Shown here: piece after piece, positions 1-62,976 of the stretch
How positions within the stretch are numbered: the stretch's first letter is position 1
Layout of the letters: the number at the start of each line of letters is the position of its first letter
NCBI GenBank assembly: GCA_964187785.1
Contig: OZ076409.1
Location: 72,418,001 to 72,482,000, forward strand
Length of the DNA: 64,000 nucleotides
Direction of reading: 5' to 3'
Source: Amphiscolops sp. MND2022
Taxonomy: Eukaryota
Translations under genes and position numbers: made by a program
Notes under the pieces: generated by a model
What the model was told of the DNA's origin: nothing
The model's input: only the letters and a program-made list of their open reading frames with translations
Databases searched by the model: none

Positions 1-578
1 AGTTATGTGGGTTGAATTGTCATAATATCAACTAATACGGACTTTTTTGGGAAAAAAATTTTTTCACATTAGTTTCAGGGACCTACAATGCTTCAGTCAA
101 CATAACCGTAACATTTTGATAGCCTTTCAAGTTGGCCTGGTGTCAACTTGGAAGGGCTATCCTTCTAAAATCGTTAATCAAGAGTTTTTTTGGATAGGTA
201 TATGTTGCATTAGTACCAATTAGAGCTTCATCAACAGTTTGCCAACGGCAAAACAATGTCGTGATAATTCCGTTATAAGAATAACAGTTAACAAATTGTT
301 TACAAAGTTGATTTTTCCCATTCAAAATGTGTCCAAATGCCACCAAATTGAATAAAATAATAAATGGTATTGACTAAAACTAACTAACATTGAAAAAGAA
401 GCTCAACATTGTTAATAGGTCTCATTATGGAAGCTGAAACCTCACGTTTTAGTTTAATTAACGTCAACGCCACATACTTTACATCAACGCCCACCGTCTG
501 TGGGCATGCCGAGGCATGCCCTTCGACGACGTATAACAAACACCTTTAATATCTACACCCACCCGCGGTAGCAGCTAG
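1..578 (+). mobile_element. Unit U0, 3' part of a family G element (truncated by window)
   Basis: Colinear with ~62420-62976. GATAGCC hairpin 118-161, GGCATGCC hairpin 502-521, ends in CTAG. Confidence 0.8.
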
Positions 579-2569
579 GTGGGCGGGGGTAATTCCCCAA
601 CAAAAAAATCGGCCGGCGGGTCGGGTCCTGCCGGCCGTCCAAAATCAAAATCCTCCTAGTAGAAAACGGCATGTCAAACGAGCTATTTTTTTATTTAACC
701 ATTAGAATTTCACCATTTTTTGCATGCGGCCCTGAAATGGCCATACGAGACGAAGTTCCTGCTGACGTTTTGCGATGTAAATGTTTTATAAAAAGTTATG
801 GCCGATTTGTCATTCACCTAGAAGGGTAAAATGAGGAAAATTTTAACAAAGTCGCTGATAACTCAAAATGTGTTAATTTTTGGACTTTGACTGTGAAACA
901 AGCTTGGAACCTTCATTTCGTGGCTGGGGCATTGGACTGAACACAAAAGATGTAAAGTTTTTACGTTTTTTGAAAATTCGACATTTTTGAAATTTTTTTC
1001 ACTACTATCAGTACCCCATATGTCAAAAACACCTCAGAAAAAAATTTTTATTTGCTTTAAATTGGAAACCTTGGTATCCATGGTTTCTGTCGGAACCTAC
1101 TCGCAGCCAAACACCCAACAGTTTGCATCCAATGTGAAAATAAAAATTTTTTCGGGGACATAAGCGTTTCACAAGGTTTTCATGTTTTAGTATTAAATTA
1201 CATAGTGGTCATTTTAAACATAAAATTTTGGTCCAGGTATGTCGGATATAGTCTGAATGCTCACGAACGGTCCTACTGGCAACGTAGGAACCATTTATAG
1301 TAATGAAAAGTAATAAAAAAATTTTTTTAACCGGTCTTCAGTCATTTTTCAGACATTCGGAACTTAACTTAGAAAATTTTCGAACCAAATACCCATTTTT
1401 TGTCAGGTCGAAAATTGAAATTCAGCTATTAAAGCAAAATTTTTTACTCTGACGTAACCAGTGGGGTCCATGATACTCAAAAATACGATTGGGACTGGTA
1501 CCAATGGCTCCTATATCATATGAGCCGCGATAAGACGTTATTTTGAGCAATACGTCTCAATTGAGGTAAACATCTTGCAAGCCTGGGATCACAGTGAAAT
1601 GTAATTTCATCAAAAAATTACTCATTTTCGTCAATCACTATGTGCAGAGAGTGGGTAGGGTGAGTTCCAACACTATAATGAGGTTTTTGAAGGCATAGGG
1701 TTGCTCAAGGGGTGGTATGAGTCATTACTTTCCTCTATACAACTGTATTTTCAAAAACTTTTAGCCCATTATCTGGAAAAATTAACTTGACAAAATACTT
1801 TCAATTAATTTATTCAAAGGTTACAATATAGATGAACACTGTGGTTGATCAGAAACTTTCATCTCTTTCGTTTTCCGAAATAACTCCTTTCAAATGTGTT
1901 ACATTTGTAGCAGGAAAAAAAAACTGAAACTAAAAAATACGCGATTTTGCTGAGATAGAATCGCAATGGTTGCGCCTAAAATCTCTTTAAATACTTCTAA
2001 CGCGACCTTACGGACCCAAAATGATTGAAAATGCCATTCACAATGCTGACATCTGCTCTTTCTACGATCCTGGCTGGACAAGTTTTGCATTTTTTTCAAG
2101 TACCTGTTAACTGAACATTGTGATAGCCTTTCAAGTTGGCCTTGTGTCAACTTGGGAAGGCTGTCACATCAAAAAACTGTCAACAAAAATACTCTTTGTT
2201 TATAGGATAATGCTGTCGATGCTTCACTTCGTGATTCGATCATGTCGTGAGTTCCTTCCATCAGGTCAGCTAACATTTGGATTCAGTGTTGGATAAGAAC
2301 CTATGATTTTCATGACAATTTTAGTTCTTTTTTGTCAACAAAAAGTACAAATAAATGATATAAAACATATTTGTAACCTTTAGGAAGTTTAACTTTACCT
2401 TTATTTACCGTTGCCATCGCCACCCACCCCCTACGACCTCGCAGTGTCCTCATTACAACGCCACATAGTGTAGCGACGCCCACAGTCTGTGGGCATGCCG
2501 AGGCATGCCCTTCGACGACGTATGCCAAATATAGCGTTAGCCCGCGGTCACTACCGCGGTAGCAGCTAG
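579..2569 (+). mobile_element. Unit U1, family S (1991 bp)
   Basis: Starts GTGGGCGGGGGTAATTCCCC, ends CCGCGG-tcacta-CCGCGG-tagcag-CTAG. Almost identical to 50291-52280. Confidence 0.85.
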
Positions 2570-2573
2570 GTGG
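2457..2573 (+). other. Representative conserved 3' terminal module and junction
   Basis: (C)AACGCCACATA-N-ACGCCCAC-N-GGGCATGCCGAGGCATGCCC-TTCGACGACGTATGCCAAA-variable GC hairpin-CTAG^GTGG. Recurs in all units except U14. Confidence 0.9.
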
Positions 2574-5500
2574 GGGGGGATATATCTCCACTTTTTTTGC
2601 GACCGCGGGTAGGGTCCTGTCGGGAGCTTCTATTTACCAAGCTTACGGCGCTATATACTAGAGAAAATTTTTCCGGCACCGAACTTTTTTTTGAACCATA
2701 GGATTTGTACCATTTTTTGCATGCGGCCCTAATTTGGGCATACAAGACGAAGTTCCTGCTGACGTTAAGCGATGGTTTCATTGTGTAACGAAATATAGCC
2801 ACTTTTTGGTGCGAATTTTGAGGTATTTTTGAGAAAAATTTTACAAACAGCTCGAATGCAAAAAATTGAAAAACTTGTGACAATCGACCTATCACTGGTT
2901 TAAACCTTCGATTCTTTGCCCTAGCAATGCACTAGACCCAAAAGATCTAAAACTTTTACATTTTCCAAAAATTTGACCAAATTGACTCGGGTTTCACTAC
3001 TATATGTAACCAATGTGACAAAAACACCTCAGAAAAAAATTTTTATTTGCTTAAATTTAGAAACCTTGGTATCCATGGTTTCTGTCGGAACCTACTCGCA
3101 GCCAAACACTCAACAGTTTGCATCCAATGTGAATTTAAATTTTTTTTCGAGGTCATAGGTGTTTCACAAGGATTTCACAACTTAGTTTCATATTACAAAT
3201 TGGTCATTTTCAACATCATATTTCCATCGAGGCATGTCGGATAGAGTCTTATTGCTTACGAACGGTCCTACTGGCAACGTGTTAACCATTTATAGAAATA
3301 CAAAGTTTTAAAAAAATTTTTTCACCCGTTCTTCCATCATTTTTCAGACATTCGGAACTTATCTTAGAAAAATTTCGTCTCAAAAACCCATTTTTTGTCA
3401 GGTCGAAAACTCAAATTCAGCTTTTTAAGCACAATTATTAACTCTGACGTAACCAGTGGGGCCCATGATACTCAAAACAACGATTGGGGTTGGTACCATT
3501 GGCTCAAATAACATATGAGTCGCGATAAGACGTTATTTTTAGCCATACGTCTCAATTGAGGTAAACATCTCGCAAGCCAGGGATCTCTGTGAAATGTGAT
3601 TTCATCAAAAAGTTACCCATTTTCGCCAATTACTATGTGCACAGAGTGCGTAGGGTGAGTTTCAGCACTATAATGAGGTTTTTGAAGGATTCGGGTTGCT
3701 CAAAGGGTGGTATGAGACATTTTTTTCCCATATACTACTGTATTTTCCAAAAATTTTAGCCCATTATCTGGAAAAACTAACTTGACAAAATACTTTCAGT
3801 TACTCTATTCGAAGCTTAGAATATAGATGAACACTGTGGTTGATCAGAAACTATTAACTATTTTGTTTTTAGAAAAAAACTGCCTTGCATGTGTTACATT
3901 AGTGGCAGGAAAAATACCAGTAGCTCCAAAAATCAAAAATTTGGACGGACAGACTTCCAATGATGCAAAACAAAAACGTTTCAACAACTTCTGACGCCAC
4001 TTTTTTTACCCAAGAGGTTCGAAAACACCATTAACAATGCTGACATTCGCAATAAATAAGATCGAGGTCTATTTACTAACACTTAGGTTTTAAATTTTTT
4101 TCTCGGAAACCCATTATTGTCAGGTCGCAAATTCAAATTTGGTTTTGGAAGCAATACTTTTCACTCTGAAGCAAACCATTGGGCCCAAAATACACAACAA
4201 CAACAAAAAGACTATCACCATATGCTCTAATAACATATGAGATGCGACTGTATGTTTTTAACACATAAACTCTCATTCTGAAGTAAACATGTTGAAAGCC
4301 TTGAATCACCGTGAGAAGTGATTTCATCAAAAAACATTTCTTTTTCGTCAATCACTAAATACACAGAACCCGTTGTGTTAGTTTCAGTCGTGAAATGAGG
4401 TTCTACCGTAATATCGGTTGCTCAAGGTGTTGTATAAGGCAAAAACTTCCTCTTTTCTACTAACTTCTTCAAATATTTCAACCCTTTGTCACACGAAGTT
4501 AATATTCAAAATCTCTTTGAATTGTTTCTTAAGGTTGTGGTGAATTGTTAGAACAATTACTATGATCGAAGAATGCTAGTATTGGTGTTTGGACCATGTC
4601 CGGATGAACAAATCGCAAAATCAAGAAAAAATTGTTTCCTTTTTTGGTTATTTTGGCAGTACTAAAAATGTTAGCTGACAAATAATTTTTTCGAAGGCAC
4701 CATTGGATTCCGCTCAAAAAGTTGATTATAACACATGTGTAATAACCCCGTATCTTTTCAATTTAAATAAATTTAAAAAGCAAACTTTTTTGACGAAAAT
4801 CCTAAAAATCATACCATTTCCTAAAAAATTTCAAATGCACTCCATTTGACGTATAAGAATAGCACAGAAAACTATCATATACCGATCAACTCTACTCCCA
4901 TTGTAGACTATTAGAATTTTGTTTTGATTGAATTTTGAAGAATATTAAAAAAATTTTGAACCCTCCAAAAATGGACCAAAACTACACGAAAAAATTGACC
5001 TTAAAATTTTAAAATGTCAAAAAATCATCAAAACCACAACTTCTTGGGGTTCTATCAACTCCACGTGGTCCACAGAGTACGCTAAAACAGGTTTTACCCG
5101 TTTTTGAGCAATATGTGAAAAAGCCGACATTTTTGGGAAAGAAAAACATACCATTTCCTAAAATATTTCAAATGCACGCCATTTGCCGTATGAGAATAGC
5201 ACAGAAAACTATCACATACCGATCAACTCTACTTCCATTGTAGATGATTAGAAGTTAGTGTAAGTGAAAATTAGACCGATAATAAAAAAATATAAATCCT
5301 CCAAAAGTGGGCAAAAATTACACGAAAAAAATGTCCTTAAAATATTAAAATGTCGAAAAATCATCAAAACCACAGCTTCTTGGGGTTCTATCAACTCCAC
5401 ATGGTCCACAGAGTACGCTAAAACAGGTTTTACCCGTTTTTGAGCAATATCTGGAAAAACCGACATTTTTGGGAAAGAAAAACATAACATTTCCTAAAAA

Positions 5501-7340
5501 AATTCACATGCACGCCATTTGGCGTATAAGAATAGCACAGAAAACTATCATATACCGATCAACTCTACTCCTATTGTAGATTATTAGAACTTTGTTTTGA
5601 ATGAATTTTGATGGATAATAAAAAATTTTGAACCCTCCGAAAATGGGCTAAAATTACACGAAAAAAAATGACCCTAAAATTTTAAAATGTCTAAAAATCA
5701 TCAAAACCACAGCTTCTTGAGGTTCTATCAACTCCACATGGCCCACAGAGTATGCCAAACCAGGTTTTACGCGTTTTTGAGCAAAATTTAGGAAAGCCGA
5801 TTTTTTTGAGGAAGAAAAACATATCATTTCCTAAAAAACTTCAAATGCACGCCATTTGGCGTATAACAATAGCACAGAAAACTATCACATACCAATCAAC
5901 TCTACTCTTTTTGTAGATTACCAGAAGTTTGCTTAGAATAACTTTTGATGAATATTTATAAATTTTAAACCCTCCTAATATGGGCCAAAATCACACGGAA
6001 AAATTGACCCTAAGTATTAAAATGTCAGATATTCATCAAAACCCCAGCTTCTTGGCGTTCTATCATTTCCATATGACTTTCAGAGTATACCAAACAAGTT
6101 ATTAACATTGGGCGATAATTAAAAAGACCAATTTTATTCTGAAGAAAACCATAATATGTTCAATATAAGAAGTGAATCATTCCACATATATACCCTGTCT
6201 AATATTCTAAATAAGCAAAAAAATATATACTTGATGTTTTTTGAATGTGAGCTTCATAAAAGGTTGAGATGTGATAATACGTAAATGGATTCCAAGTTTC
6301 ATCGAAAAGTCAATGGAATACGTCCAATCAACTTCAATCTTAACAATTCGATAACAAAAAACACTTAAGTACATTCCATCTCCCTATCGGGGAGATGAGA
6401 ATGTACTTTTCAAAAACTAAAAACTTAGATCTTTCTATCTTTTGTAACACTTACTGTAACAGCTGAAATGATGAAAGAATAATTATTCTTCTAATAACTT
6501 CAAGATTTTTTGCTTCACCTTTTATTTGTGCAGAACAAAACCATAAGACATACATATTTTTCGCTGTTAAGTTCAACTGTATTACCCAGTGAACAAAGGT
6601 ATGACAGGAAGATTACAAGTTGTCTCAAAACTTTCCCGCCTTCCAAAATCATGAAACGTCTACACAACCAAGATAGTAAAGGAATGAATGTGGAATGCAT
6701 CATTTTAGTTAAAATAAATAACGTGTAGAACTTACCTTTATCTGAAGATGACGTTGATTTATGATCTTTAGAGGATAGTTCAATTTTTGACCATAATAGT
6801 GCGAAACTAATTATTATATGAATAATGGCGTGGAAAGCGTTCAGAAATTGCAGTATTTTCGATTGGAGCATGTATGCGTGGGTTCCTTTGGTGGCATTAG
6901 CTTAGTGTACATGATGGAAGTTTTCGATCTATTATGATAAAATTTACTCACAAGTCTTTGTTTTTCCTATTTTTTTATGCCATTAAGTACATTCATTCTA
7001 TCCCCTTCTCTGGGAATGTACGTTTGCCAAATGACTGTCATCCAAATTTTGCATTCGCGAAGAGTTTAAATACATAAACACGTCTTTAGCGTTTCCAAAT
7101 CACAACCGATTAACATTTTTTAAAATTTTTTTATGAAAATTGATAATTTGTTTTGATTTTGGTATCTTCTACTTTTATCATCCATCATAACAAGCACCTT
7201 ACCATGTCTCTCGCTTGTCTTCATTTTACAACGCCACATAGCGTTCCGACTCGCACCGTCTGTGGGCATGCCGAGGCATGCCCTTCGACGACGTATGCCA
7301 ACTACTTTTTATATCTACACCCGATTGCGGTAGCGGCTAG
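2570..7340 (+). mobile_element. Unit U2, family L (4771 bp) with divergent first ~400 bp
   Basis: Starts GTGGGGGGGGATATATCTCC, then joins the S/L body. 4 x ~337 bp repeats, GTACATTC hairpin 6367-6408, ends CTAG. Confidence 0.85.
4811..6150 (+). repeat. Internal tandem repeat, 4 x ~337 bp
   Basis: ATAccATTTCCTAAAA motif at 4811, 5148, 5484, 5821. Confidence 0.9.
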
Positions 7341-11309: not shown

Positions 11310-14300
11310 GTGGGCGGGGGTAATTCCCCAACAAAAAAATCGGCCGGCGGGTCGGGTCCTGCCGGCCGTCCAAAATCAAAATCCTCCTAGTAGAAAACGG
11401 CCGGTCAAACGAGCTATTTTTTTATTTAACCGTTAGAATTTGGGTTTAGATTGCATGCGGCCATGAAATGGCCATACGAATGGAAGTTCCTGCTGACGTT
11501 TTGCGATTGAAACACTTTATAAAAAGTTATGGCCAATTTGTCATTCACCTAGAAGGGCAAAATGAGGAAAATTTTAACAAAGTCGCTGATAACTCAAAAT
11601 GTAATAATTTTTGGACTTTGACAGTGAAACAAGCTTGGAACTGTCATTTCGTGGCTGTGGCATTGCACTGAACACAAAAGATGTAAAGTTTTCACATTTT
11701 TTGAAAATTCGACATTTTTGAATTTTTTTTCACTACTATCAGTACACTATATGTCAAAAACGCCTCTGAAAAAAATTTTTATTTGCTTAAAATTAGAAAC
11801 CTTGGTATCCATGGTTTCCGTCAGTACCTACTCGCTGCCAAACGCTCAACAGTTTGCATCCAATGTGAAAATATAATTTTTTTCGAGGTCATAGGTGTTT
11901 CACAAGGATTTCTCAACTTAGTATCTATTTACAAATTGGTCATTTTGAACACATTATTTTCATCGAAGCGTGTCAGATACCACCCTAATGCTCACGAATG
12001 GGCCTACTGGCAACGTTGGAACCATTTTTAGTAATAGAAAGTATTAAAAAAATATTTTCACCCGGTCTTCAGTCATTTTTCAGACATTCGGTACTTAACT
12101 TAGAAAAATTTCGCATCAAAAACCCATATTTGGTAGGGTCGAAATTTGAAATTCAGTTTTTTATGCAAAATTATTAACTCTGACGTAACCAGTGGAGCCC
12201 ATGATACTCAAAAACACGATTGGGACTGGTATCAGTGGCTCCAATAACATATGAGCCGCGATAAGACGTTATTCAGAGCAAACGCTCTAAATCGAAGTAA
12301 ACATCTCTGAAGCCTGGGATCACAGTGAAATGTGATATCACCAAAAGTTTACTCTTTTTTGTCAATCACTATGTACACAGAGTGCGTAGGGTGAGTTTCA
12401 GGACTATAATGAGGTTTTTGAAGTAATCGCGCTGCTCAAGGGGTGGTATGAGACTATTTTTTCCCATATACTACTACATTTCCATAAATTTGCAGTCCAT
12501 TGTCTTGGAAAGATAACTTCACAAAAACAATTTTTCTACTCTATTCAGTTATTAGAATAAAGTTGAACACTGTGGTTGATCAGAAATGCTCAATTCTTTT
12601 GGTTTTTAAAAAAAATTCCTTCGCATTCGTTACATTTGTGGAAGGAAGGTTATCAGTAGCTCCAAAAAAAACGAAATTTAGCACGAACAGACATGCAACG
12701 ATGCAAAGCAAAAACGTTTTTACAACTTCCGACGTCATTATTTTACCCAAGAAGTTCGAGAATATCATTCGCAATGCTGTCATTCGCTATATATACGATC
12801 GCGGTCAATTTACAAACATTTAGATTTCATTGTTCTGCTTGAAAACCAATTTTTGTCAGGTCGAAATTTTAAATTTTGCCTGGGGAGCAATACCCTTCAC
12901 GCTGAAGTAAACAGTGGGGCCCAAGTTACTCAAAAACAAGAAAGAGACTGCTACAATATGTCCTAATAACATATGGACCACGATAGTACGTTTTTCACAC
13001 AAAAAACTCTCATCCGAAGTAAATATGTTGAAAGCTTTTAATCACCGTGAGAAGTGATTTCATTAAAAAATAACTCTTTTTTGTCAATCACTATTTACAC
13101 AGAATTTGTAAAGTTAGTTTGAGTCATGAAATGAGGCTTTACCGTAATATGGGTTGCTCAAGGTGTTATATAAGACAAAAACTTCCTCTTTTCTACTAGC
13201 TTCTTCAAATATTTCAACCCTTTGTCACAATAAGTTAATATTCAAAATCTCTTTGAAATGTATCTTTATGTTGGGGTGAAGTCTAAGAACAATAACTATG
13301 ATCGAAGAATGCTAGTACTGGTGTTTGAACCATGTCCGGATGAACAAATCACAAAATCATCAAAAAATTGTTCCCTTTTTTGGTTATTTTGGCAGTACTA
13401 AAAATGTTAGCTGATAAATAATTTTTTCGATGGCACCATTGGATTCCTCTCAAAAAGTTGGTTATATGACCTGTGTAATAACCCCGTATCTTTTCAATTT
13501 AAATATATTTAAAAAGCCAACTATTTTGACCAAAATCCTAAAAATCATACCATTTCCTAAAAATTTTCAAATGCACCCCATTTGAGGTATAAGATAAGCA
13601 CAGAAAACTATAATATACCGATCAACTCTACTCCCATTGTAGATTATTAGAATTTTGTTTAGAATGAATTTTGATGGATATTAAAAAAATTTTGAACCCT
13701 CCAAAAATGGGCCAAAATTACACGAAAAAATTGACCTTAAAATACCAAAATGTCAAAAAATCATCAAAACCCAGGCTTCTTGGGGTTCTATCAACTCCGC
13801 GTGGTCCACAGAGTATGCTAAAACAGGTTTTACCCGTTTTTGAGCAATATGTGAAAAAGCCGACATTTTTGGGAAAGAAAAACATACCATTTCCTAAAAA
13901 AATTCAAATGCACGTCATTTGCCGTATTAGAATAGCACAGAAAACTATCACATACCAATCAACTCTACTTTCATTGCAGATGAACAGAATTTTGTTTAGA
14001 ATAAATTTTACCGGATAATAAAAAAATTTGAATCCTTCAAAAATGGGCCAAAATTACACGAAAAAATGAACCTTAAAAATTTAAAATGTCAAAAAATCAT
14101 CAAAACAACAGCTTATGGGGTTCTATCAACTCCACGAGGTCCACAGAGTATGCTAAAACAGGTTTTACCCGTTTTTGAGCAATATGTGAAAAAGCCGACA
14201 TTTTTGGGAAAGAAAAACATACCATTTCCTAAAAAAATTCAAATGCACGCCATTTGCCGTATGAAAATAGCACAGAAAACTATCACATACCAATCAACTC

Positions 14301-16070
14301 TACTTTCATTGCAGATGAACAGAATTTTGTTTAGAATAAATTTTACCGGATAATAAAAAAATTTGATTCCTTCTAAAATGGGCCAAAATTACACAAAAAA
14401 ATGGACCTTAAAATTTTAAAATGTCAAAAAATCATCAAAACCACGGCTTCTTGGGGTTCTATCAACTCCACGTGGTCCACAGAGTATGCTTAACCCGGTT
14501 TTACCCATCTTTGAGCAAAATGTGAAAATACCGACATTTTTGGAAAAGAAAAACATGCCATTTTCTAATAAATTTCAAATGCACGCCATTTGCTGTATGA
14601 GAATAACACAGAAAGCTGTCACATACCGATCAACTCTACTTCCATTGTAGATTATCAGAAGTTTGTTTAGAATAAATTTTGATGGATAATAAAAAAAATT
14701 GAATCCATCAAAAATGGGCCAAAATTACACGAAAAAATTGACCTTAAAATATCAAAATGTCAAAAAATCATCAAAACCACAGTTTCTTGGCGTTCTATCA
14801 ACTCCATATGATACCAAACCAGGTACTGCCAATCGTTTGAGTTATAATAAAAAAACCTCTTTTTTGGCAAGAATTCCATACCATAAATAATAATCATGTT
14901 CCATATAAGAAGCGAATCATTTCAGATATATACCCTGTTCATTTTTTTAATATTACCGATTATTAATTTAATAGATGTTTTGAATGTGAGCTTCCTAAAA
15001 GGTTCAGGTGTGATGATACGTAAAAAGAACCTTAGTTTCATCGAAATCTCAATTGAATATGTCCAATCTTAACCATCAGATAACAAGAAACACTTAAGTA
15101 CATTCCATCTCCCCATCGGGGGAGATGAGAATGTACTTTCGAGAAGCCAAATACGTCCAACATTCAAACTTTTGTAACTTTGTATGTAACTCCTGAAACG
15201 AAGAAGGAATAAAATTGTTTCTGGTACATACATGAGTCTTTACTTCAGCTTCTATTTCTGCTGAACAAAACCATTCGACTCTTTTGCCGGAGTTAAGATC
15301 GATTGTATTACCCAGTGAACAAAGGCATGACTGAAAACGTTTACTACTTTGTTCATAATTTTCCGGCCTTCCGAAATGATGAAACGTCCACATAACTAAG
15401 ATAGCAAGTGAATGACTGCGAAATGCACCTTATTAGATGAGGTAAATAACGTGTAAAACTCTCCTTTATCCTAACATGAGGTTGAGTAATGATCATTTGA
15501 GAATAGTTTGATATGTGAATACAATAGTATAAAACAAGTACATTTTATATGAATAACGCCGTGGAAAGCGTTCAGAAAGGACAGTAGGCTTGTTTGGAAC
15601 ATGTATGTGTGGTGTCCCTTGGTGGCGTTCGCTTAGTGTATATGTCGAGGGGTATTCGAGTTGTTATGATAGAATTTACACACAAGTCTTTTGTTTTTTG
15701 GTTTTTTTAAAATGTCGTTAAGTACCTGCATTCTATCCCCTTCTCAGAGATGACGTGAAGTTACGTTTGCTAAATAAATGTCATCGAAAGATCACACTCC
15801 CGACGAAATTAACTATCTTAACACGTGTTTAGAATTTTAAATAAACAACCGTATAAGATTTTTATATTTCATTGAGTTTGATGAAGTCTTTTGTTCTTCT
15901 AACTACTATTTCAACCAATACACATATCCGTTACCATATCACATGTCTCCATTAGTACAACGCCACATAGCGTTGCGACGCCCACAGTCTGTGGGCATGC
16001 CGAGGCATGCCCTTCGACGACGTATGGCAAATGGAGCCATGCCCGCCGTCTTTACGGCGGTAGCGGCTAG
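11310..16070 (+). mobile_element. Unit U5, family L (4761 bp)
   Basis: Internal repeats, hairpin 15096-15138, ends CCGCCGT-cttt-ACGGCGG-tagcgg-CTAG. Near-identical to U11. Confidence 0.85.
13547..14880 (+). repeat. Internal tandem repeat, 4 x ~336 bp
   Basis: Same monomer as 4811-6150. ORFs ending at 14018 and 14353 repeat the same translation. Confidence 0.9.
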
Positions 16071-18059: not shown

Positions 18060-20850
18060 GTGGCGGGGGGCTGTCCCCAATAGAATATAGTGAGGTAGGG
18101 TAGGGTTCCCTACCGAACATTCAGTACTGAAAGACTCTTGTAGTATGAAAATTTTTCGATGTTTTGAGACCGATTTCGGATTCCACCCGTCAGAAGTTTA
18201 TGATTTTTTGGCCCCCACCCAGATTTTGGGCACTGATCGCCCCCCACCAGGTTCCATACCCGTGGTTTCGTTGTGACGGGTACACGAGCGACCGTTAGGG
18301 GTCAATCAGGGGGTAAAATTTATAAAAGTGTGAATAACTTTTCCCCCCGTCGTTTTAGCAGGTCCGGTCACTAGTAAAGGTTTGTTGGGCATCATGCAGT
18401 GGGTACGGGGGGCCAAACAAAAATTTTCTATCTTGCACCGTTACGGACTTGGCCCCCCGCCCAAACCGCTATTTTACCGGAAATTGCACTTTTTGACCGG
18501 GAAGGAGTCGTCTGAGCGCGGAGTCATTTGGTAATGTTTTGTAGAGCATCTGAAGACGTTGTGGGGGACATGTAGTTTGCCGACCCCAGTTTACCCCTCG
18601 GACGGGAAATGACCGTTATGTGAGTTTCAAAAATGCCCCCCTCCAATTTTCCCCGCAATTTCCGGTGTGAAGGAGTCGGAATAGCGTGTCGAGTGCTATA
18701 TATCAAAAGTAGCTTTAAACAAGGACCTATCAGAAACATGTGGTTTGGGACCCTTTGAACGGACCCGTTAGCCGGAAATAGGGTGACCGCCTCCTTTTTT
18801 TGGTGGTAAAACCGTAAAACGGGCATTAAAGTGTAATTATCTCGTGAACGCGTGGAGCAATCGTGTCCATCACTCCTACAAGGTTTCATACCCATGACAT
18901 GGTGCCTTCAGGGGGGCAAACAGATCAGCGCTATCTATCACCGTTACGGACTTTGCCCCCCAGCCTAACCGCTATATTACCGGAAATTGCCCTTTTTGAC
19001 CGGGAAGGAGTCGTCTGAGAGTGGAGTCGTTAAGTAATGTTTTGTAGAGCATCTAGAGACGTGTTGGGGGACATGTAGTTTGCCGACCCCGGTTTACCCC
19101 TCGGACGGGAAATTACCGTTATGTGAGTTTTAAAATTGACCCCCTTCAACTTTCCCCGTTATTTCCGATGTGAAGGAGTGAGGGTAGCGCGTCGGGTGTC
19201 ATATATCAAAAGTAGGTTAAGACAAGGACCAACCGGGAACATGTTGTTTGGGACCCTCTGGCCCAACCCGTTAGCCGTTATAAGGGTGATCGCCTCCTTT
19301 TTTTACTGCTAAAACCGGAAAACGGGCATTGAGGGGTAAATATCTCGTGAACGCGTGGAGCAATCGTGTCCATCACTACTACAAGGTTTCATACCCATGA
19401 TACGGTGCCTTCAGGGGGGAAAACAGATTACCGCTATATATCACCGTTACGGACTTGGCCCCCCAGCCTAACCGCTATGTGACCGGAAATGTCATTTTTT
19501 GAGCCAAAAGGGTTGGTCCCAGCGTAGGAACGTCAGGTAACTTTATGTAGAACTCAATGAGACGAGTTGGGGGATATAGTTTTAGTCACCCCCCGTTGAC
19601 CCGTTGGACCGGAAACGACCGTTATGTAGTGAAAAATGTTATTTTTATACTTTTTGAAGGCCATTTAGGGCAGGAAGTATCGGTAATATGTCTTTGGACA
19701 GTATACAATGAAAGTTTTGGTGTGAAACGAGCAATCTGAAATAACCGTTATTATGATTCGGAAGTCACACTAACAGCGAAAATGACCGTTATGTAGTGAA
19801 AATTTTTTTCACAATTTTTTTTATTTTCGATAGGTCCTTCAAGCCAGGAAGTAGCTGTATTAGGTCTTTGGTCACTTTATGATGATTGTGGTGTTGTGAG
19901 ATGACCGTACGAACTTGACCGTTATAATGCCCCTGAAGTTGCGGCGGCACGAGAAATTTCAGAAAGTTTGTCTTTTCTGTGTTTTGTTGTAATAAACATG
20001 TAATTTCATCAAACCAAAGTGCATTCAGGGTGTCAGAAAGCTTCAAGAAAAGAATTTGACAGGAAACATGAGGTGAGAAATAGGAAAATGCCACGGAAAT
20101 CCAACCCGTTGGGAAGTAAAGATAATAAATTGGTTTGGAAGTGCCAATCGACGTGTAATTGCGGATCATAGCTACGATATTGTCTCTTTTGTTTCTTTTT
20201 GAAGACTTTGAACATTTTCACTTTATCAGCTTGAAGTTTCGACTCCATTAACTCAATAACCGTTACAATATGATAGCCCTCAAGTTGACCTTGTGTCAAC
20301 TTGAAAGGGCTATCCTTTCACAACTGCGCAGCGACAGTGTGATTGAGTGTTTTTGTTATTATCCATAGCCAATTTGAACTTCAACAAAAGTTTAACCATA
20401 GTTAAAAAATTTCATATGATTCTTTTAAAAGGATAAGTAAGAAACAAATGTTTGACAAAAAACTTTCAACCTTTAATTTGTGGACTGAATATCAGGAAAA
20501 CCATGTCTCCTAACGTTGTTGGATGAAATTCAACATGATTCTTTTAATAGGATAACAAAGTTTGACAACATATTTTTTTATATTCTTTCGTTGGTGCTCT
20601 ACATTTTAGGAAAACGAATTTTCCAACAAATATTGTTGGCTGATGCCTGTTCATAGTGGCTTGAAAATTTCACCAACTGTAATGCTTTTTATCAAAGGTG
20701 AAACCGCTCCTTACCGTCGCATAATGTAATTCAAGCCGACGCCCACATGCCAACATCAACGCCCACCGTCCGTAGGCATGCCGAGGCATGCCTTTCGACG
20801 ACGTATGCCAAATCACGCCCCTGCGAGGTCACTAAAGCGGTAGCGGCTAG
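18060..20850 (+). mobile_element. Unit U7, GC-richer family G (2791 bp)
   Basis: Body homologous to 61001-62976, not to S/L. Head hairpin 18094-18114, GATAGCC hairpin 20272-20314, AGGCATGCC hairpin 20774-20793. Confidence 0.82.
18441..19640 (+). repeat. Internal tandem repeat, 503 bp period, about 2.4 copies
   Basis: TTACGGACTT...CCCCC...AACCGCTAT at 18441, 18944, 19447. Confidence 0.85.
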
Positions 20851-22121
20851 GTGGCCGCGTCTTTTAGATGGACTTTTAGCCCTGAGGCGCGGGTAGGGTC
20901 CTGCGCCGAGCTGGTGAAAATATACTACGTCCAAATCGCCCGTTCCGGAAACGATCTCGAAAACTGACCGTTAGAAATTCCTGAAAATTTGCATGTGGCC
21001 CCCAATTGGCGAGCAATGAAAAAGTGTAGGAGGTCATTTTTCCCAAATTCCACTGTGAGACGAGATATATGAAAAAAACGGACCCCAAAATGACGGAAAT
21101 TTCACTTTTTGACCATTAATGGGACATTATCTCCCCAGACAAGGCTCGGAGCAAAATTTGTCAGAACCCAAACCTGCAGCAGACTGTTAGAGCAGTACAC
21201 ACAGTAATTTTGAAAGAAATCCGATAATCACATGTTGAGAAATTGACGTTTTTCCGGCGAAATTTCTAGCAAATGCAGTCTATCTCTGCCGTTTTTTGCC
21301 CAAAATTTTTCCGAGACACTCGCCTAAAGGCCTCCCCTGGCCGGTTTACCTCCCAAAAAAACCATTTGGCCCTAAATACGAGGTTTCAGCGTTCTAGCTT
21401 TTCCCAGTAAAAAGTTATGGGACTTAGAAGTTTTTCAAAACTTTTCAAAATTTTTCTAAAAAAGTTCAGGCCGCCCAAAGTGAAGAAACTTCCACACAAC
21501 TAGTATTGCAAGTGAATGCATGTGGAAAGCCCTGCACTTGACGAGAAAAATGCCGTTTAGAACGTCTTTTTATCTCAACTTGATGTTGACTTATGATCTT
21601 TTGAGTAGCGTATAACACGTGATCACAGTAGTGAAAACCCTAATTTTCAAAAATTTTCGAACAATAACGCATGAAAAGAACCTGGAAAAGGTTCCGATGG
21701 GTCAGTTGGGATGTCTGAAGCTTGTGTACATTCCCGTAGTGTATAGCGGATGTATTTGGGACTTATTAGAAATTGTGATATGTTTTATACAAGTCTTTGT
21801 TTCTCTTAGAATCTTATGCAGTTGAGTACATTCCATCTCCCTCTCAGGGGAGATGTGAATGTACGTTTGTCAAATGCCTTGTATATTTCACATCTTTGAT
21901 GGATTCAAATAACTAAACAAGTGTGATTTGCGTTTGCCGAACCACTGCGACAAAATACCCTAAATCTATAGCGAGATTGTATGGTTTTTGTCTTTAGTGT
22001 TTCGTCTTGTGTAGCCGACTTCCACATCCAAATATCAACGCCCGCCGTCCGTAGGCATGCCGAGGCATGCCTTTCGACGACGTATGCCAAATACCCAATG
22101 CCACGCTGTCATTATCGCTAG
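20851..22121 (+). mobile_element. Unit U8, divergent 1271 bp element
   Basis: GTGG start, head hairpin 20886-20907, GTACATTC hairpin 21826-21864, conserved tail. Segment ~21390-21590 is homologous to ~23380-23570 and ~25560-25750. Confidence 0.8.
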
Positions 22122-26506: not shown

Positions 26507-28496
26507 CTAGCTGCTACCGCGGTAGTGACCGCGGGCTAACGCTATATTTGGCATACGTCGTCGAAGGGCATGCCTCGGCATGCCCACAGACTGTGGGCGT
26601 CGCTACACTATGTGGCGTTGTAATGAGGACACTGCGAGGTCGTAGGGGGTGGGTGGCGATGGTAACGGTAAATAAAGGTAAAGTTAAACTTCCTAAAGGT
26701 TACAAATATGTTTTATATCATTTATTTGTACTTTTTGTTTGCAAAAAAAAACGAAAATTGTTATGAAAATCATAGGTTCTTATCAAACACTGAATCCAAT
26801 TGTTAGCTGACCTGATGGAAGGAACTCACGACATGATCGAATCACGAAGTGAAGCATCGACAGCAATATCCTATAAACAAATGGTATTTTTGTTGACAGT
26901 TTTTTGATGTGACAGCCTTCCCAAGTTGACACAAGGCCAACTTGAAAGGCTATCACAATGTTCAGTTAACAGATACTTGAAAAAAATGCAAAACTTGTCC
27001 AACCAGGATCGTAGAAAAAGCACATGTCAGCATTGTGAATGGCATTTTCAATCATTTTGGGTCCGTAAGGTCGCGTTAGAAGTATTTAAAGAGATTTTAG
27101 GCGCAACCATTGCGATTCTATCCCAGCAAAATCGCGTATTTTTTAGTTTCAGTTTTTTTTCCTGCTACAAATGTAACACATTTGAAAGGAGTTATTTCGG
27201 AAAACGAAAGAGATGAAAGTTTCTGATCAACCACAGGGTTCATCTGTATTGTAACCTTTGAATAAAGTAATTGAAAGTATTTTGTCAAGTTAGTTTTTCC
27301 AGATAATGGGCTAAAATTTTTGGAAAATACAGTAGTATATGGGAAAAAAATGTCTCATACACCCCCTTGAGCAGGCCGATTACTTCAAAAACCTCATTAT
27401 AGTGCTGAAACTCATCCTATGCACTCTGTGTACATAGTGATTGACGAAAATGAGTAATTTTTTGCTGAAATTACATTTCACTGTGATCCCAGGCTTGCGA
27501 GATGTTTAACTCAATTGAGACGTATTGCTCAAAATAACGTCTTATCGCGGCTCTTATGATATAGGAGCCATTGGTACCAGTCCCAATCGTATTTTTGAGT
27601 ATCATGGAGCCCACTGGTTACGTCAGAGTAAAAAATTTTGCTTTAATAGCTGAATTTCAATTTTCGACCTGACAAAAAATGGGTATTTGGTTCGAAAACA
27701 TTCTAAGTTAAGTTCCGAATGTCTGAAAAATGACTGAAGACCGGGTGAAAAAATTTTTTTAATACTTTTTCTTACTATAAATGGTTCCTACGTTGCCAGT
27801 AGGACCGTTCGTGATCATTCAGACTATATCCGACATGCCTGGACCAAAATTTTATGTTTAAAATGACCACTATGTAATTTAATACTAAATCATGAATACC
27901 TTGTGAAACGCTTATGACCTCGAAAAAATTTTTTATTTCACATTGGATGCAAACTGTTGGGTGTTTGGCTGCGAGTAGGTTCCGACAGAAACCATGGATA
28001 CCAAGGTTTCCAATTTAAAGCAAATAAAAATTTTTTTCTGAGGTGTTTTTGACATATGGGGTACTGATAGTAGTGAAAAAAATTTCAAAAATGTCGAATT
28101 TTCAAAAAACGTAAAAACTTTACATCTTTTGTGTTCAGTCCAATGCCCCAGCCACGAAATGAAGGTTCCAAGCTTGTTTCACAGTCAAAGTCCAAAAATT
28201 AACACATTTTGAGTTATCAGCGACTTTGTTAAAATTTTCCTCATTTTACCCTTCTAGGTGAATGACAAATCGGCCATAACTTTTTATAAAACATTTACAT
28301 CGCAAAACGTCAGCAGGAACTTCGTCTCGTATGGCCATTTCAGGGCCGCATGCAAAAAATGGTGAAATTCGTATGGTTAAATAAAAAAATAGCTCGTTTG
28401 ACATGCCGTTTTCTACTAGGAGGATTTTGATTTTGGACGGCCGGCAGGACCCGACCCGCCGGCCGAATTTTTTGTTGGGGAATTACCCCCGCCCAC
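26507..28496 (-). mobile_element. Unit U12, complete family S element in reverse orientation (1990 bp)
   Basis: Minus strand reads GTGGGCGGGGGTAATTCCCC...GTAGCAGCTAG. Closely related to U1/U21. Confidence 0.92.
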
Positions 28497-35214: not shown

Positions 35215-36285
35215 GTGGTCAAGGGGGATGCCCATCAGAAAATATTGCGAGGCCGGGGAGGGTCCCGAGAGCCGAGCACATTCTATCAATTCCTACCTTC
35301 AGGATTGCGAAGTATTTTAACCGATCTCGAAATTCACCCGTAGGATTTGTCTGAAACTTTGCATGTGGCTTAATCTCCAAAATTTAAGAACTTTTTTCCT
35401 CTGACGTTTTTCCAGGAAAATTCATTTTGTAAGGTTTTTTTGCGTTTTTTTGGTTTTTTTCATCTTTTTTCATCTTTGATTAATCAATGACCGAATCAAA
35501 GGCCATTTTCACCATGAAGGAAAACCCGTAGCGGCAAAGTGCACTTTTATGAAAATCATCAACGGTCAACGGTCTTTCGAACGGTCCAAAAAAATTTCCC
35601 CCCCGGGGGGGACCAAAGTGCCGAAAAGTGCCAAATTTATTTTTTTGACTGAATCACTTCGATCAAATTGATGATTTGAGCAGCCGGAACGGTCCGCACG
35701 GTCTCGGACAATAAGGTCAAAAATTAGCAGCATCCAATGGGGGTTCCAAAAATGTAATTTGTTCACCTGTAGGAGACATCAGAAAAAAGTTGATTTTTTT
35801 GAGTTTTGGCATTATGACTGATCGGATGATAAATCATTGCATCACGTTGAGTTGCATTTGGTGCAGCAAACGAAGCAGCTGCAGCGAACTTGAGACTGCT
35901 TAGGGGGCTGGGGTTTACTATCTGTAACAAGCAAAATAACCCTTGGGCATAAGGTATGCCAAAAAATGCCTCAAAGTGTTTATTAAGTTTTTGCAAATCG
36001 GCTAGCAAAATTCATTGTCACCGGTGTTCCGAGGGTTGCGCAGCATCTCGCGGGAACAACGGTGCTTGTTTCGAACGCAAAACCCAACATACCTCTTTGG
36101 TGACGTGACGGAGGTCACCATTGGCCTTTTTCAAGAGTGTGATGATATTTTTATCGTTGAATTGTGATGAACATACACAAAAGATTTAGCGTGGGATATT
36201 TGTTTGTGTCATACTTCAGTAACAAACTTTCAACCGTTTTGTTTAGGCCTCTACCTAGCAGTGCTCTAAATCGCTCCATCGCTAG
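35215..36285 (+). mobile_element. Unit U14, unique 1071 bp element lacking the GGCATGCC tail
   Basis: Bounded by CTAGGTGG on both sides. Has the head hairpin (CGGG-gagggt-CCCG) and the CCGTAGGATTTGTCTGAAACTTTGCATG block. Confidence 0.7.
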
Positions 36286-37564: not shown

Positions 37565-39562
37565 GTGGGCGGTAGGTTTCCCGTAGTCAAAAAAAAATTG
37601 CAGGCCGGGGTAGGGGCCCTGGCCGAGGCAAAATACCATAGAAAAGGTACCAAATTATGTGAGTTTAGAAAATTGAGCCATACAAATTCTCTGAAAATTG
37701 CTGTGTGTACCCTATCGCCCAATCTAAGAACTTTTTCCTGCTGACGTTTTGCTCTCCAAATGTTACTAATATGACTTTTTGAAAAATTTATCTCTGGTTT
37801 TTCATCAAAAATAGTGATTTTGGCAATTTTTGTGAAATATCTCTGATTGCATTAATTTTTGGACGTTGACTGTGAAACAAGGTCGGAACCATCATTTCGT
37901 GACCATGGCAATGCACTAAACACAAAAGATGTAGAGTTTTTAAATTTTTTGAAAATTTGACATTTTTAAATTTTTTTCACTACTATCAGTACCATATATG
38001 TCAAAATAACCTCAGAAAAAATTTTTTATTTTATTTAATTTAGAATCCTTGCTATCCATGGTTTCTGTTAGTATCTACTCGCTGCCAGAGACTCAACAGT
38101 TAGCATCGAATCTGAAATTAAAAATTTTTTCGAGGTCATAGGTGTTTCACAAGGATTTCACAACATAGTCTTGTTTTACAAATAGGTCATTTACAACATT
38201 ATATTTTCATCGAGGCATGTCGGATAAAGTCTTATTGCTCACGAACGGTCCTACTGGCAACGTAATAACCATTTATAGAAATATAAAGTTTTAAAAAAAA
38301 TCTTTTCACCCGTTCTTCAGACATTTTTTAGACATTCGGAACTTAACTTAGAAAAATTTCGTCTCAAAAACTCATTTTTCGTCAGGTCGAAATTTGAAAT
38401 TCAGCTTTTGAAGCACAAATATGCACTCTGACGTAACCAGTAGGGCCAATGATACTCAACAACACCATTGAGACTGGTATCAGTCGCTCCAAAAACATAT
38501 GAGCCGTGATAAGACGTTTTTTCAACAATACTGTTCAATTGATGTAAACATCGCGGAAGCCTTGGATTACAGTGAAAGTTGATTTGAACAAAAATTTACT
38601 CTTTTTTGTCAATCACTATGTAGACAGAATGCGTAGGGTAAGTTTCAGCACTAATATGAAGATTTTGAAGGAATCGGGTTGCTCAAGGCGTGGTATGAGA
38701 CACTTTTTTCTCATATACTAGTGTTTTTCAAAACCTTTTCGTTAAATATCTCGAAAAGCAAACATTAAAAAATACTTTCTGATATCTAATTTAATTCCTA
38801 GAATATAAATGAATCATGTGGTTGATCAGAAACTCTCTACTTTAATGTTTCAAGAAAAAAATCCCTTCCCATGTTTTATATCTGTAGCAGTAAAAAAAGT
38901 AGACGCTAAAAAATACGCTATTTTGCTAATATTGAATTGCAATTGTTTAGCTTTAAAACTCTTTTAATACTTCTAACGCCACCTTAAGGACTCAAGATGA
39001 TTGAAAATGTCAATCACAATGCTGACATGTAGTCTTTCTACGATCCTGGCTGGACAGATTTTGATTATTTTTCAAGTACCTGTTAACTGAATCTCGTGAT
39101 AGCCTTCTAAGTTGACCTTCTGCGTCAACTTGAGAAGGCTATCACTAAAATAAACTAAATTCTGATTTGTTTGTTTGTTTGTTCCTAACGTCTTTTGGTA
39201 CGATCGTCTTACGGTTAGTTGGTTAAACCAGGTCGCTTATACTTCCACAATTTTCGACCACAGTCCGTGTATTCGGTTCACACGACTTTACATTTTCAGT
39301 CGTTTGTTTTCGATAACTATCACAATGTACTGCCATTAGCGCAAAATTCATACTAGTACTTGGTTGGTTGAAATACTTAAACAACTGTTTCCATAGTTAT
39401 TCGCGGTGATGGTACAATCCGCGCGCCTACATACCTACGGCGTCTTGTCACTACAACGCCACATAAGGAAACAACGCCCATAGTCCGTAGGCATGCCGAG
39501 GCATGCCTTTCGACGACGCGCGCCAAATCTATGCGCGCCCGCACTTGTGCGGTAGCTGCTAG
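37565..39562 (+). mobile_element. Unit U16, divergent S-like element (1998 bp)
   Basis: S-like body from ~37850 to 39145, with different head and different final ~400 bp. Confidence 0.82.
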
Positions 39563-61000: not shown

Positions 61001-62976
61001 GTGCGGGGGGGTAACCCCAACAAAGATATTGGAGGATTCGGGTAGGGTCCTGAATCCGATCTTAGTACCGCCAGCTATCAGTAGAAAATTTCCCTCAAAA
61101 ACCGGGATCTCGGGAACTAACCGTAGGATTTGAAAGTTGGAGCGGCCCCCACCAGATTTTCCCGAATAGATCGCCCCCCACCGGGCTCCATACCCCGGAA
61201 AATTTTTTTTTGGCCACACGGGCGACAGTTAGGGGGTCATTTTAGGGGTAAAATTCATATTGGTCCATATAACTTTTTTCCTGTTGGTTTAAAAGTTTGG
61301 GAACCCTGCTAAAGGTTTTTCGACCATGTTGCAAGGGCTCCGGAGGTGCAAACCAAATTTTTCTATCTTGAAGCTATCTCCAAGTACCCCCCCGCTCAAA
61401 CCGTTATTTTTCCGGAAACGCAGGTTTTTGACCCGGAAGGAGTCGTCTGAGCGCGGGGTCGTTAGGTGATGTTTTGGGGACGGCCTTGAGACAAAGTGGG
61501 GGACAAGTAGTTTTCCAACCTCAATTTACCCCCCGGACGGGAAATGACCGTTATATGAGCGTGAAAAATGCCCCCCTCCACGTTTTACCGCTATTTCCGG
61601 TGTGAAGGTGTGGGAGTAGCGCGTCGGGTGCCATATATCAAAAGTAGGTTTAGACAAGGATCTATCAAAAACATGTGGTTTGGGACCCCCTGACCCAACC
61701 CGTTAGCGGGAAATGGGGCTTCCGCCTCCTTTTTTTTCGGTTAAAAACGGAAAATGGGCATTGAGGGGTAAATATCTCGTGAACGCGTGGAGCTACGGTG
61801 TCCTTCACTACTACAAGGTTTCATACCCATGATATGGTGCCTTCAGGGGGGCAAACAGATTTCCGCTATCTATCACCGTTACGGACTTGGCCCCCCAGCC
61901 TAACCGCTATGTGACCGGAAATGTCACTTTTTGAGCCCAAAGGGTCGGTCCCAGCCAGGGAACGTTAGATAACTTTTTGTAGTACTCATTGAGACGAGTT
62001 GGGGGACATAGTTTCAGTCACCCCCCGTTACCCCTTGTGACCGGAAATGACCGTTATGTGGGTAAAATTAGGATTTTTGTACTTTTTGAAGGGCATTTAG
62101 GTGCGGAAGGAGTGGTAATAGGTGCTTGGACACTATATGATGGAATGGAGGACGTGAGGCGAACATTCAGACATAACCGTTATGTTGACCCTAAAGTCCC
62201 CCTGGTACCGTAAACGACCGGAAATGGTCAAATTTTGTGTCTATTGGGTACAAATGTTTGGTATTTTGTAAATAAAAGTATCTATTAGGTGTTTCGACGG
62301 TCTGCAGTAGTGAACATAGTCATGAAACCTTGTCGGGGGGTAACGGTATATAGCACCGGAAGTCCAAAACGTTAGAGACGGGATAGGTTTTTTCGTTTTA
62401 AAATGTCTTTCGGCGTACTTTTGTCAACTAATATGGAATATTTTTTAAAATTAAAGTTTTTCCATATAGTTTCAGAGACTCCCAAACCTCAAACAACATA
62501 ACCGTTACCTTATGATAGCCTTTCAAGTTGGCCTGGTGTCAACTTGGAAGGGCTATCCTTCAAAAATCGTTGATCAAGTGTGTTTTTGGGTATGTTTGAA
62601 TCATTTTAGAATCAATTAGAGCTTCAAGAAATGTTTGCCAACTACAAAAACTATGTCGTGATGATTCCGTTATTAGAGTAATGGTTAACAAAATATTGAT
62701 TAAGTTGATTTTTTACATTTCAAAAGTGTCCTAAAAGCCAGAAAACCTCTTTACCAAACAAATGGTATTGATTGGATTGTATATAACATGTAATAAAAGT
62801 TCAAATTGATTATTACGTTTTATTATGTAAGCTGAAACGTCATATTATAGTTTAATTAACGTCAACGCCACATACTTTACACCAACGCCCACCGTCTGTG
62901 GGCATGCCGAGGCATGCCCTTCGACGACGTATACCAAATACATTTCATATCTACACCCACCCGCGGTAGCAGCTAG
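61001..62976 (+). mobile_element. Unit U25, family G (1976 bp)
   Basis: Starts GTGC (the only non-GTGG start). Homologous to U7 with one fewer 503 bp repeat. 3' part homologous to U0. Confidence 0.82.

Follow-up and report, generated by a model that had tools for sequence, protein, structure and literature searches.

Why do gene-less transposon units with unrelated bodies each carry one long hairpin, drawn from several classes of unrelated sequence? The question is raised by a 64,000-nt stretch of the Amphiscolops sp. MND2022 genome (OZ076409.1, 72,418,001-72,482,000, forward strand; hereafter the window), which is part of an array several megabases long in which gene-less and intact Helitron-like elements are mixed. 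A preliminary description of the window reported two mutually exclusive hairpins, classes A and B, of unrelated sequence and similar architecture, and proposed that they are interchangeable functional sites, for example a second-strand origin or an enzyme-binding site. We find that the hairpins are real and under selection, and that the Helitron lineage bearing them is divergent and self-targeting; the evidence supports their being interchangeable cis-acting modules. Thousands of gene-less units belong to these arrays, and we predict that the hairpin is likely a signal that each copy needs to multiply.

Setting unit boundaries at CTAG^GT (the caret marks the junction) yields 25 complete units in the window, 15 with class A, nine with class B, one with another hairpin and none with both. 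Both classes lie where they were first described, together with additional class A copies, one of them inverted (Table 1). Mutual exclusivity therefore held, but the one unit described as empty, U14, contains a third class, C. The hairpins are 37-50 nt long with stems of 15-20 bp. DNA folding of each hairpin was compared with 200 shuffles, and for A and B no shuffle (0/200) was equally stable (z-scores in Table 1); the class C fold is weaker (z = -1.9). Exact patterns scanned across the 1.07-Gb genome matched 1,890 times for A and 1,722 times for B, with no match to the reversed patterns that served as control, and among the first 100 matches listed of A and of B, nearly all fall within arrays.

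Table 1. Coordinates of hairpins, units and terminal features in the window, with DNA-fold z-scores.
Feature	Position	Strand	z
Class A hairpin starts	118, 2122, 8884, 10869, 17615, 20272, 34773, 39098, 41105, 47855, 49844, 51833, 53826, 60560, 62514	+	
Class B hairpin starts	6367, 15096, 21824, 23793, 25970, 32258, 37257, 45345, 58058		
Class A hairpin, partial G-type unit	118..161	+	
Class A hairpin, S unit	2119..2168 (core 2122-2165)	+	-3.4
Class A hairpin, 2.79-kb unit	20272..20314	+	
Class A hairpin with 7-nt loop, U16	39098..39143	+	
Class A hairpin, G unit	62514..62557	+	
Class A hairpin, inverted copy	26911..26954	-	
Class B hairpin, L unit	6367..6408	+	-5.4
Class B hairpin, 1.27-kb unit U8	21826..21864	+	
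Decayed second class B hairpin, captured 3' part of L	6985..7021 (also 45974, 58666)	+	-0.9
Class C hairpin with GC-GCA-GC apex, U14	36019..36064	+	
U14, 1.07-kb class C unit	35215..36285	+	
Complete S unit, gene-less Helitron-like, GTGG...CTAG, 1,991 nt	579..2569	+	
L unit, complete (4,771 nt), made up of a 1.47-kb S-like 5' part, 336-nt minisatellite, class B, captured 3' part with decayed class B	2570..7340	+	
336-nt minisatellite, 3.8 copies, within L	4805..6065	+	
Junction CTAG^GTGG between head-to-tail units (25 such junctions on the + strand), similar to the insertion target	2566..2573	+	
5' subterminal hairpin with GGG(T/G)NGGG(T/C)CC motif, common to elements with and without genes; candidate RepHel binding site	610..637	+	
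Palindrome of 20 nt, about 60-80 nt upstream of the 3' end, in many but not all families	2491..2510	.	
Inverted S unit lying within the 5' end of another unit	26507..28496	-	

The rule of one hairpin per unit extends to two larger sets of array sequence. In the first, 864 kb divided into 315 segments (303 gene-less, 12 intact), 293 of the 303 gene-less segments have a single hairpin from the three classes (151 A, 133 B and 9 C). The remaining ten comprise one segment with a fourth class and nine merged units, eight with an internal 5' motif and one holding the inverted insertion. Eleven intact segments lack all three classes, and the twelfth takes in an upstream B unit. In the second set, 1.39 Mb of arrays that contains the first, 443 of 478 gene-less segments have exactly one of A, B and C. 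All eight segments scored as having none show a variant of these classes or another class, and the lengths of the 27 multi-hairpin segments match merged units, suggesting that they arose by merging. A loose 5'-end pattern, with just 47 matches in the genome, served only to pick up new families.

Selection on the hairpins is evident from their arms. Between families, arm identity is 88% for A (36 family pairs) and 94% for B (55 pairs), compared with 53-57% for the 100-nt flanks and 51-52% for a shuffled control. The arms thus stand far above flanks that are near the control level, in agreement with the earlier view of the hairpins as islands within unrelated bodies. Within 11 families, arms are 96-100% identical and flanks 74-99%. 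Constraint acting copy by copy in this way is more in keeping with a cis element than with a product shared among copies. Pairing is maintained in B even though its loop varies from 4 to 11 nt, with the 3' arm less variable than the 5' arm, and the mostly invariant core of A includes one pair that occurs as A-T, G-T and G-C. Two-sided changes at seven of 18 pairs in class C are support rather than proof, since the aligned rows are related and five are one base out of register.

The fate of spare hairpins points the same way. The L unit took over the 3' half of a B unit, and the second B hairpin so acquired has decayed variously in three copies (Table 1), while an A-bearing 4.9-kb family carries a decayed C. 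Loss of the spare hairpin in two types of chimera suggests that the classes are equivalent. The units are recombining mosaics. A recombination hotspot at the hairpin was rejected, because linkage across it showed no consistent drop in four alignments; one family was low, at a level equal to its neighbourhood.

Two details of the original architecture did not survive closer analysis. A single bulged purine on the 3' arm had been described as a feature common to A and B, but 5 of 27 variants of A and 6 of 37 of B, among them the B form of U9 and U10, show no arm asymmetry, and in 44 B copies GT replaces the commoner AG, making the extra base a pyrimidine. A had been placed mostly about 445-465 nt before the unit end, but spacing is constant only within a family; across families the distance to the 3' end is 331-1031 nt for A and 296-973 nt for B. 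Hairpin position in gene-less units is flexible overall (250-1,030 nt from the end), and neither A nor B is tied to a single kind of element end.

At least five unrelated hairpin types occur across gene-less members. One 3,071-nt element matches its intact parent only over the first 900 and the last 86 nt; its own hairpin, capped by cGAAg, is lacking in the parent, which indicates independent acquisition. Most intact elements contain a long hairpin of their own, different from A and B, at 2.4-3.5 kb from the 3' end. One class, E, is present in 11 of the 22 long segments, and the genome has 30 loci with it (arms 94% identical, flanks 60-69%), and a TCCTGG-type class recurs across several intact-element lineages. 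A rule placing a hairpin after every open reading frame (ORF), as in giant-virus-type 3' ends, was ruled out, as hairpin E stays where the upstream ORF is missing. The class C apex is GCGNAGC in 86 of 106 copies (N being A, C or G), and several intact-element hairpins have cGNAg apices. GCGNAGC mini-hairpins are extra stable in DNA, with a related RNA version far less so, and GNA-type motifs are found at the phage G4 and ssiA priming sites (PMC13037366). The GNA triloops of class C and of several intact-element hairpins are a DNA signature.

The preliminary description associated the hairpins with HUH enzymes, and intact elements encoding the HUH-type protein RepHel do sit in the same arrays. 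A Helitron profile search identified many intact ORFs of about 2,370-2,600 aa at 71.6-76.5 Mb of OZ076409.1, and in smaller arrays on other contigs. The intact elements are 12-17 kb long and lie head-to-tail among gene-less units with a junction in common. A RepHel ORF of 2,376 aa contains PF14214 (Helitron_like_N), PF05970 (PIF1) and a C-terminal GIY-YIG domain (PF01541), and HxH and Walker A motifs are present in five array RepHel types. The match to Helraiser is confined to the helicase (E 1.4e-5), and DUF6570, a marker of HLE2, is absent from array RepHel and present in the same genome's HLE2-type copies. At E <= 1e-30, 135 relatives were found among 50%-identity clusters. A helicase tree built without a reference set split 17 lineage members from two HLE1-like copies (100/100), with five own-genome proteins, including the HLE2-type, left out because their motif anchor failed. 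One metagenome contig, with a RepHel 33% identical, has the same CTGG^GTGGG junction and 5' hairpin, and retention of both at this divergence makes the signature an old one. Viral contigs gave no match to the A and B patterns or to RepHel relatives.

Further features of the intact elements were noted. The second ORF, 3' of RepHel, is OB-fold-like, a lead only, with a recognition score below threshold; its nearest Atlas matches are POT1/CTC1-like OB folds, again only a lead. A capsid or packaging role was dropped because this ORF is OB-fold-like rather than capsid-like, with the same caveat on the score. Small accessory ORFs, each about 200 aa long, lie before or after RepHel depending on the copy (L074 1003-1722; L079 3694-4362; L065 7173-7832); their GDS/GAS-type start motif is reminiscent of SGNH hydrolases, and Pfam gave only a weak DUF459 match. 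Strong splice acceptors precede RepHel (about 830-860 nt into intact elements) and the OB-fold ORF (3' of hairpin E, e.g., L079). No upstream exon was identified for either acceptor, and they may be used in trans-splicing or in splicing from an upstream unit. Intact copies, among them L185-L186 (contig C2, 102.85 Mb), take their 5' and 3' ends from gene-less families (S, G and U8 types), so ends and bodies have been exchanged in both directions.

The proposal of interchangeable functional sites is supported: one hairpin per gene-less unit is conserved, spares decay, the 3,071-nt derivative has a different one of its own, and either class goes with different element ends. No sampled intact element has A or B, so they cannot be a universal transposase site, and 10 further RepHel elements of other lineages, several covered only in part, contained no intact A, B or C. 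A better candidate for a shared transposase site is the 5' hairpin with the GGG(T/G)NGGG motif, found in 446 of 465 units. The motif is kept, often as telomere-like TAGGG, within stems that show compensating changes (window 610-637; locus L096 370-420).

The termini explain why we call the lineage self-targeting. Gene-less and intact elements share the ends GTG[G/C]...CT(A/G)G, and the inverted S copy (Table 1) fixes the termini as GTGG...CTAG, without target duplication. Among 530 5' ends found without constraint on the preceding bases, 412 follow CTAG, 98 CTGG and three CTTG. Host bases at array ends are CTAG or CTTG, and CTGG is also among the host flanks recorded; a small array lies in host CTAG^TTGG without target duplication, and a solitary copy in CTTG^GTCC. 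The CTNG at both ends is a likeness of target and terminus, not a duplication. Adjacent same-family units are 87.6% identical (n = 98) and random pairs 87.0% (n = 90). Local tandem amplification is disfavoured as the source of the arrays because neighbours are no closer than random pairs, and the arrays probably grow by repeated insertion at junction-like sites. Segmental duplication is superimposed on insertion, as in a 6.8-kb S-L-S block present at 11328-18109 and 28492-35266 with 97% identity.

Several other properties of the units were observed. Some ends have a terminal 3' hairpin (-8 to -13 kcal/mol), but among the 45 commonest ends many have none (0 to -2.5). The palindrome near the 3' end hardly varies (314 of 510 segments, with G-C or A-T as the outer pair); it fits two adjacent p53-family half-sites, and could be a hairpin or a stress or germline enhancer. 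In U9 and U10, a decayed extra palindrome region (24005-24075 and 26180-26250) lies about 200 nt before the intact one. Unit lengths cluster tightly at about 1.04-1.07, 1.28, 1.39, 1.98, 2.18, 2.79 and 4.75-4.9 kb, and the same length classes recur in families of unrelated or 40-50% diverged sequence. The arrays are megabase-long and mostly of a single orientation (contig C1 70.4-76.5 Mb; contig C3 2.5-3.9 Mb), and one ends at the last base of the 104-Mb contig C2; a centromeric or telomeric role is possible.

What might the hairpin do? Conservation copy by copy, together with the sufficiency of one hairpin, argues that the hairpin acts in cis when the copy bearing it multiplies. By analogy with plasmids, the reading we favour, at somewhat under an even chance, is that the hairpin acts in cis on the excised single-stranded DNA (ssDNA) circle as a priming site for the second strand. 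Single-strand origins (ssos) of plasmids are position-flexible, interchangeable modules of five classes (PMC5703833). Helraiser requires double-stranded circles; its ssDNA circles are inactive and not converted, and the priming of the minus strand is left open (PMC5876387). RepHel would nick a junction, aided by the 5' GGG(T/G)NGGG hairpin, and the + strand would be peeled off until a unit-length circle closes at the next junction, much as rolling-circle plasmids do at a regenerated origin. The long internal hairpin would then fold on the ssDNA circle, where a host primase or polymerase would begin the other strand, perhaps after the OB-fold protein has coated the remaining ssDNA or GIY-YIG has nicked beside the stem. 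If only double-stranded circles insert, a damaged hairpin would leave no offspring and a second hairpin would be redundant. New copies would enter CT(A/T/G)G^(G/T)T sites, recreated at each insertion, so that mixed arrays grow.

Several observations weigh against second-strand priming. The strict conservation of sequence calls for sequence-specific readers, and no eukaryotic primase is known to read such sites. In three intact types the hairpins 3' of RepHel reach at most about -11 kcal/mol, and ANA replaces GNA in 20 of the 106 class C copies. Class E overlaps a branch-point-like CTGAC directly before a pyrimidine tract and AG, which points to RNA. Class A on the + strand has pyrimidine loops and 21 G-T versus 6 A-C pairs, mostly at one position, which suits RNA as well as DNA. 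By RNA energies, 18 of 23 A variants favour the + strand; class C favours + as well. Class B is without such bias (16 of 36 variants more stable on +), and cG(N)1-2Ag loops occur on its - strand in 10 of 32 variants and 92 of 170 copies, with none on +. The strand evidence is thus mixed, as A and C favour + and the B loops favour -, and an sso is active on the displaced strand only (PMC5703833). Helraiser, moreover, transposes with its two ends alone (PMC4778049).

A second explanation, a serious minority possibility, is that the hairpin acts in cis as RNA, ending or processing a transcript of its unit that starts in the 5' module, or tethering RepHel or its OB-fold partner to nascent RNA at the source locus. 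In the 1.28-kb families, B lies about 200 nt past the point where intact elements run into a splice acceptor and the RepHel 5' untranslated region, hairpin E overlaps a likely branch point, and A and C favour the sense strand, with G-U pairs. Neither A nor B is retained upstream of the ORF in any intact element, and in one whose 5' end is of the S type the similarity stops within the 5' arm of A, as if A were incompatible with expression. An RNA role sits poorly, however, with the GNA triloops and with the lack of energetic strand preference in B, and no common promoter, donor or acceptor was found beside A and B across families.

A rather unlikely reading is that an element enzyme recognizes the hairpin on ssDNA or as a cruciform, either as a helicase pause that licenses the cut at the next CTAG in place of the usual 3' hairpin, or as a GIY-YIG nick site; it corresponds to the enzyme-binding site of the preliminary description. 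Helraiser uses a hairpin near its 3' end as a terminator (PMC4778049), and many families here, including all 2,376-aa intact types, have no hairpin in the last 42 nt. The GIY-YIG domain of RepHel matches an SLX1 homologue very weakly (E 0.33), and a cruciform would account for classes favouring different strands. Yet the distance from hairpin to end ranges over 250-3,400 nt, A and B are missing from intact elements, both are combined with several types of end, the bulge is dispensable, and flank linkage does not drop consistently at the hairpin.

We consider it improbable that host factors bind the hairpins in double-stranded form, or that these are neutral palindromes whose likeness is due to descent and gene conversion. 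The units are recombining mosaics, and A and B contain AGG(T/C)CA-like and ACATTCC-like strings, respectively, possible transcription-factor motifs, but in the same families the flanks are hardly more alike than random sequence, spare copies decay, B keeps its pairing around a variable loop, and compensatory pairs exist. Least probable of all is that the hairpins, as short miR-451-like stems, give rise to small RNAs that target host or element genes in trans: hairpin size, stem length and the more constant 3' arm of B are compatible with this, and one Argonaute pathway could take unrelated sequences, but more than 1,700 copies per class would not be expected to be conserved individually or held at one per unit for a trans product, Rfam gave no match at gathering scores in the window and only chance-level matches around A, B and C, the best match of the arms to 14 intact elements still has three mismatches, and central arm bases vary.

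Comparison with known systems helps to place the lineage. It shares with Helitron1/HLE1 (Helraiser, PDB 7lcc; wheat Xuan-Feng) a RepHel with HUH and Pif1 helicase domains, a 3' CTRR, the lack of target duplication, gene-less partners with the same ends, and possibly an OB-fold accessory gene 3' of RepHel (a lead only). HLE1, however, begins with TC and inserts at A^T, whereas the elements here begin with GTG[G/C] and insert at CT(A/T/G)G^(G/T)T. The HLE1 hairpin 10-15 nt before the 3' end is often missing here, the C-terminal GIY-YIG and helicase-only match to Helraiser set the array proteins apart, and our searches gave no description of the internal hairpin module. With HLE2 (Helitron2/Helentron) the lineage shares 5' hairpins, long RepHel ORFs and, in some relatives, OTU; GIY-YIG is reported once, in a Sphagnum HLE2 family (PMC11417382). 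It differs from HLE2, which is marked by DUF6570, a T^T target and asymmetric terminal inverted repeats, in having no DUF6570 in array RepHel, no T^T target and a CTRR end. Telomere-targeting Helitrons of Paramecium likewise form a divergent clade with sequence-specific targeting, fixed orientation, internal satellites and ORF-less derivatives, but their target is the telomeric repeat and here it resembles the element's own junction (PMC13085455). Published work already covers Helitrons in tandem, Helitron-like arrays in subtelomeres and Helitrons with specific targets, and related literature includes PMC5148889, PMC13286980, PMC11934779 and bioRxiv 10.64898/2026.09.17.752431. Among the papers listed, our literature search gave no description of this lineage or of internal interchangeable hairpins; Repbase and most subscription papers lay outside the search, and HELIANO supplements may contain such families.

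The ssos of bacterial plasmids and phages (ssoA/U/T/W/L, the G4 origin and RSF1010 ssiA) are likewise several unrelated, interchangeable, position-flexible hairpins, some with GNA apices. Their readers are RNA polymerase or primase, they work on the leading strand alone, and ssoA is about 160 nt, whereas the hairpins here are shorter (37-50 nt) and eukaryotic, with a predicted role and an uncertain strand for B. IS91-family elements use HUH Y2 rolling-circle transposition, and their target tetranucleotide (CTTG/GTTC) abuts the origin end and resembles the element's own terminus, as here, but they are bacterial and lack a helicase fusion, and no arrays of this kind are known for them. The hairpins of IS608 TnpA and of integron attC sites, to which the preliminary description compared A and B, share imperfect pairing and the setting of a cassette-like array next to an HUH enzyme. 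The analogy fails because the extrahelical base is not conserved here; the hairpins also lie away from the cut site, 250-1,030 nt from the junction, and no recombination peak was seen at them.

We also make a broader proposal, which we hold tentatively and regard as doubtful: the arrays may represent an undescribed, widespread third kind of Helitron, an integrated system resembling a rolling-circle plasmid, in which the junction is both origin and target and gene-less satellites survive only through interchangeable second-strand hairpin origins, the first for any eukaryotic transposon. The conversion of the Helitron ssDNA circle to its active double-stranded form is an open step (PMC5876387), for which the arrays provide short, natural, swappable candidates. 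Intact, decayed and alternative hairpin classes form built-in controls, and dozens of intact enzymes make the step directly testable. Should the hairpins act as RNA, a cis-acting RNA requirement in a DNA transposon would be unexpected too. Targeting of its own junction by a Helitron lineage would explain megabase arrays of a single orientation, and offers a sequence-specific HUH integrase.

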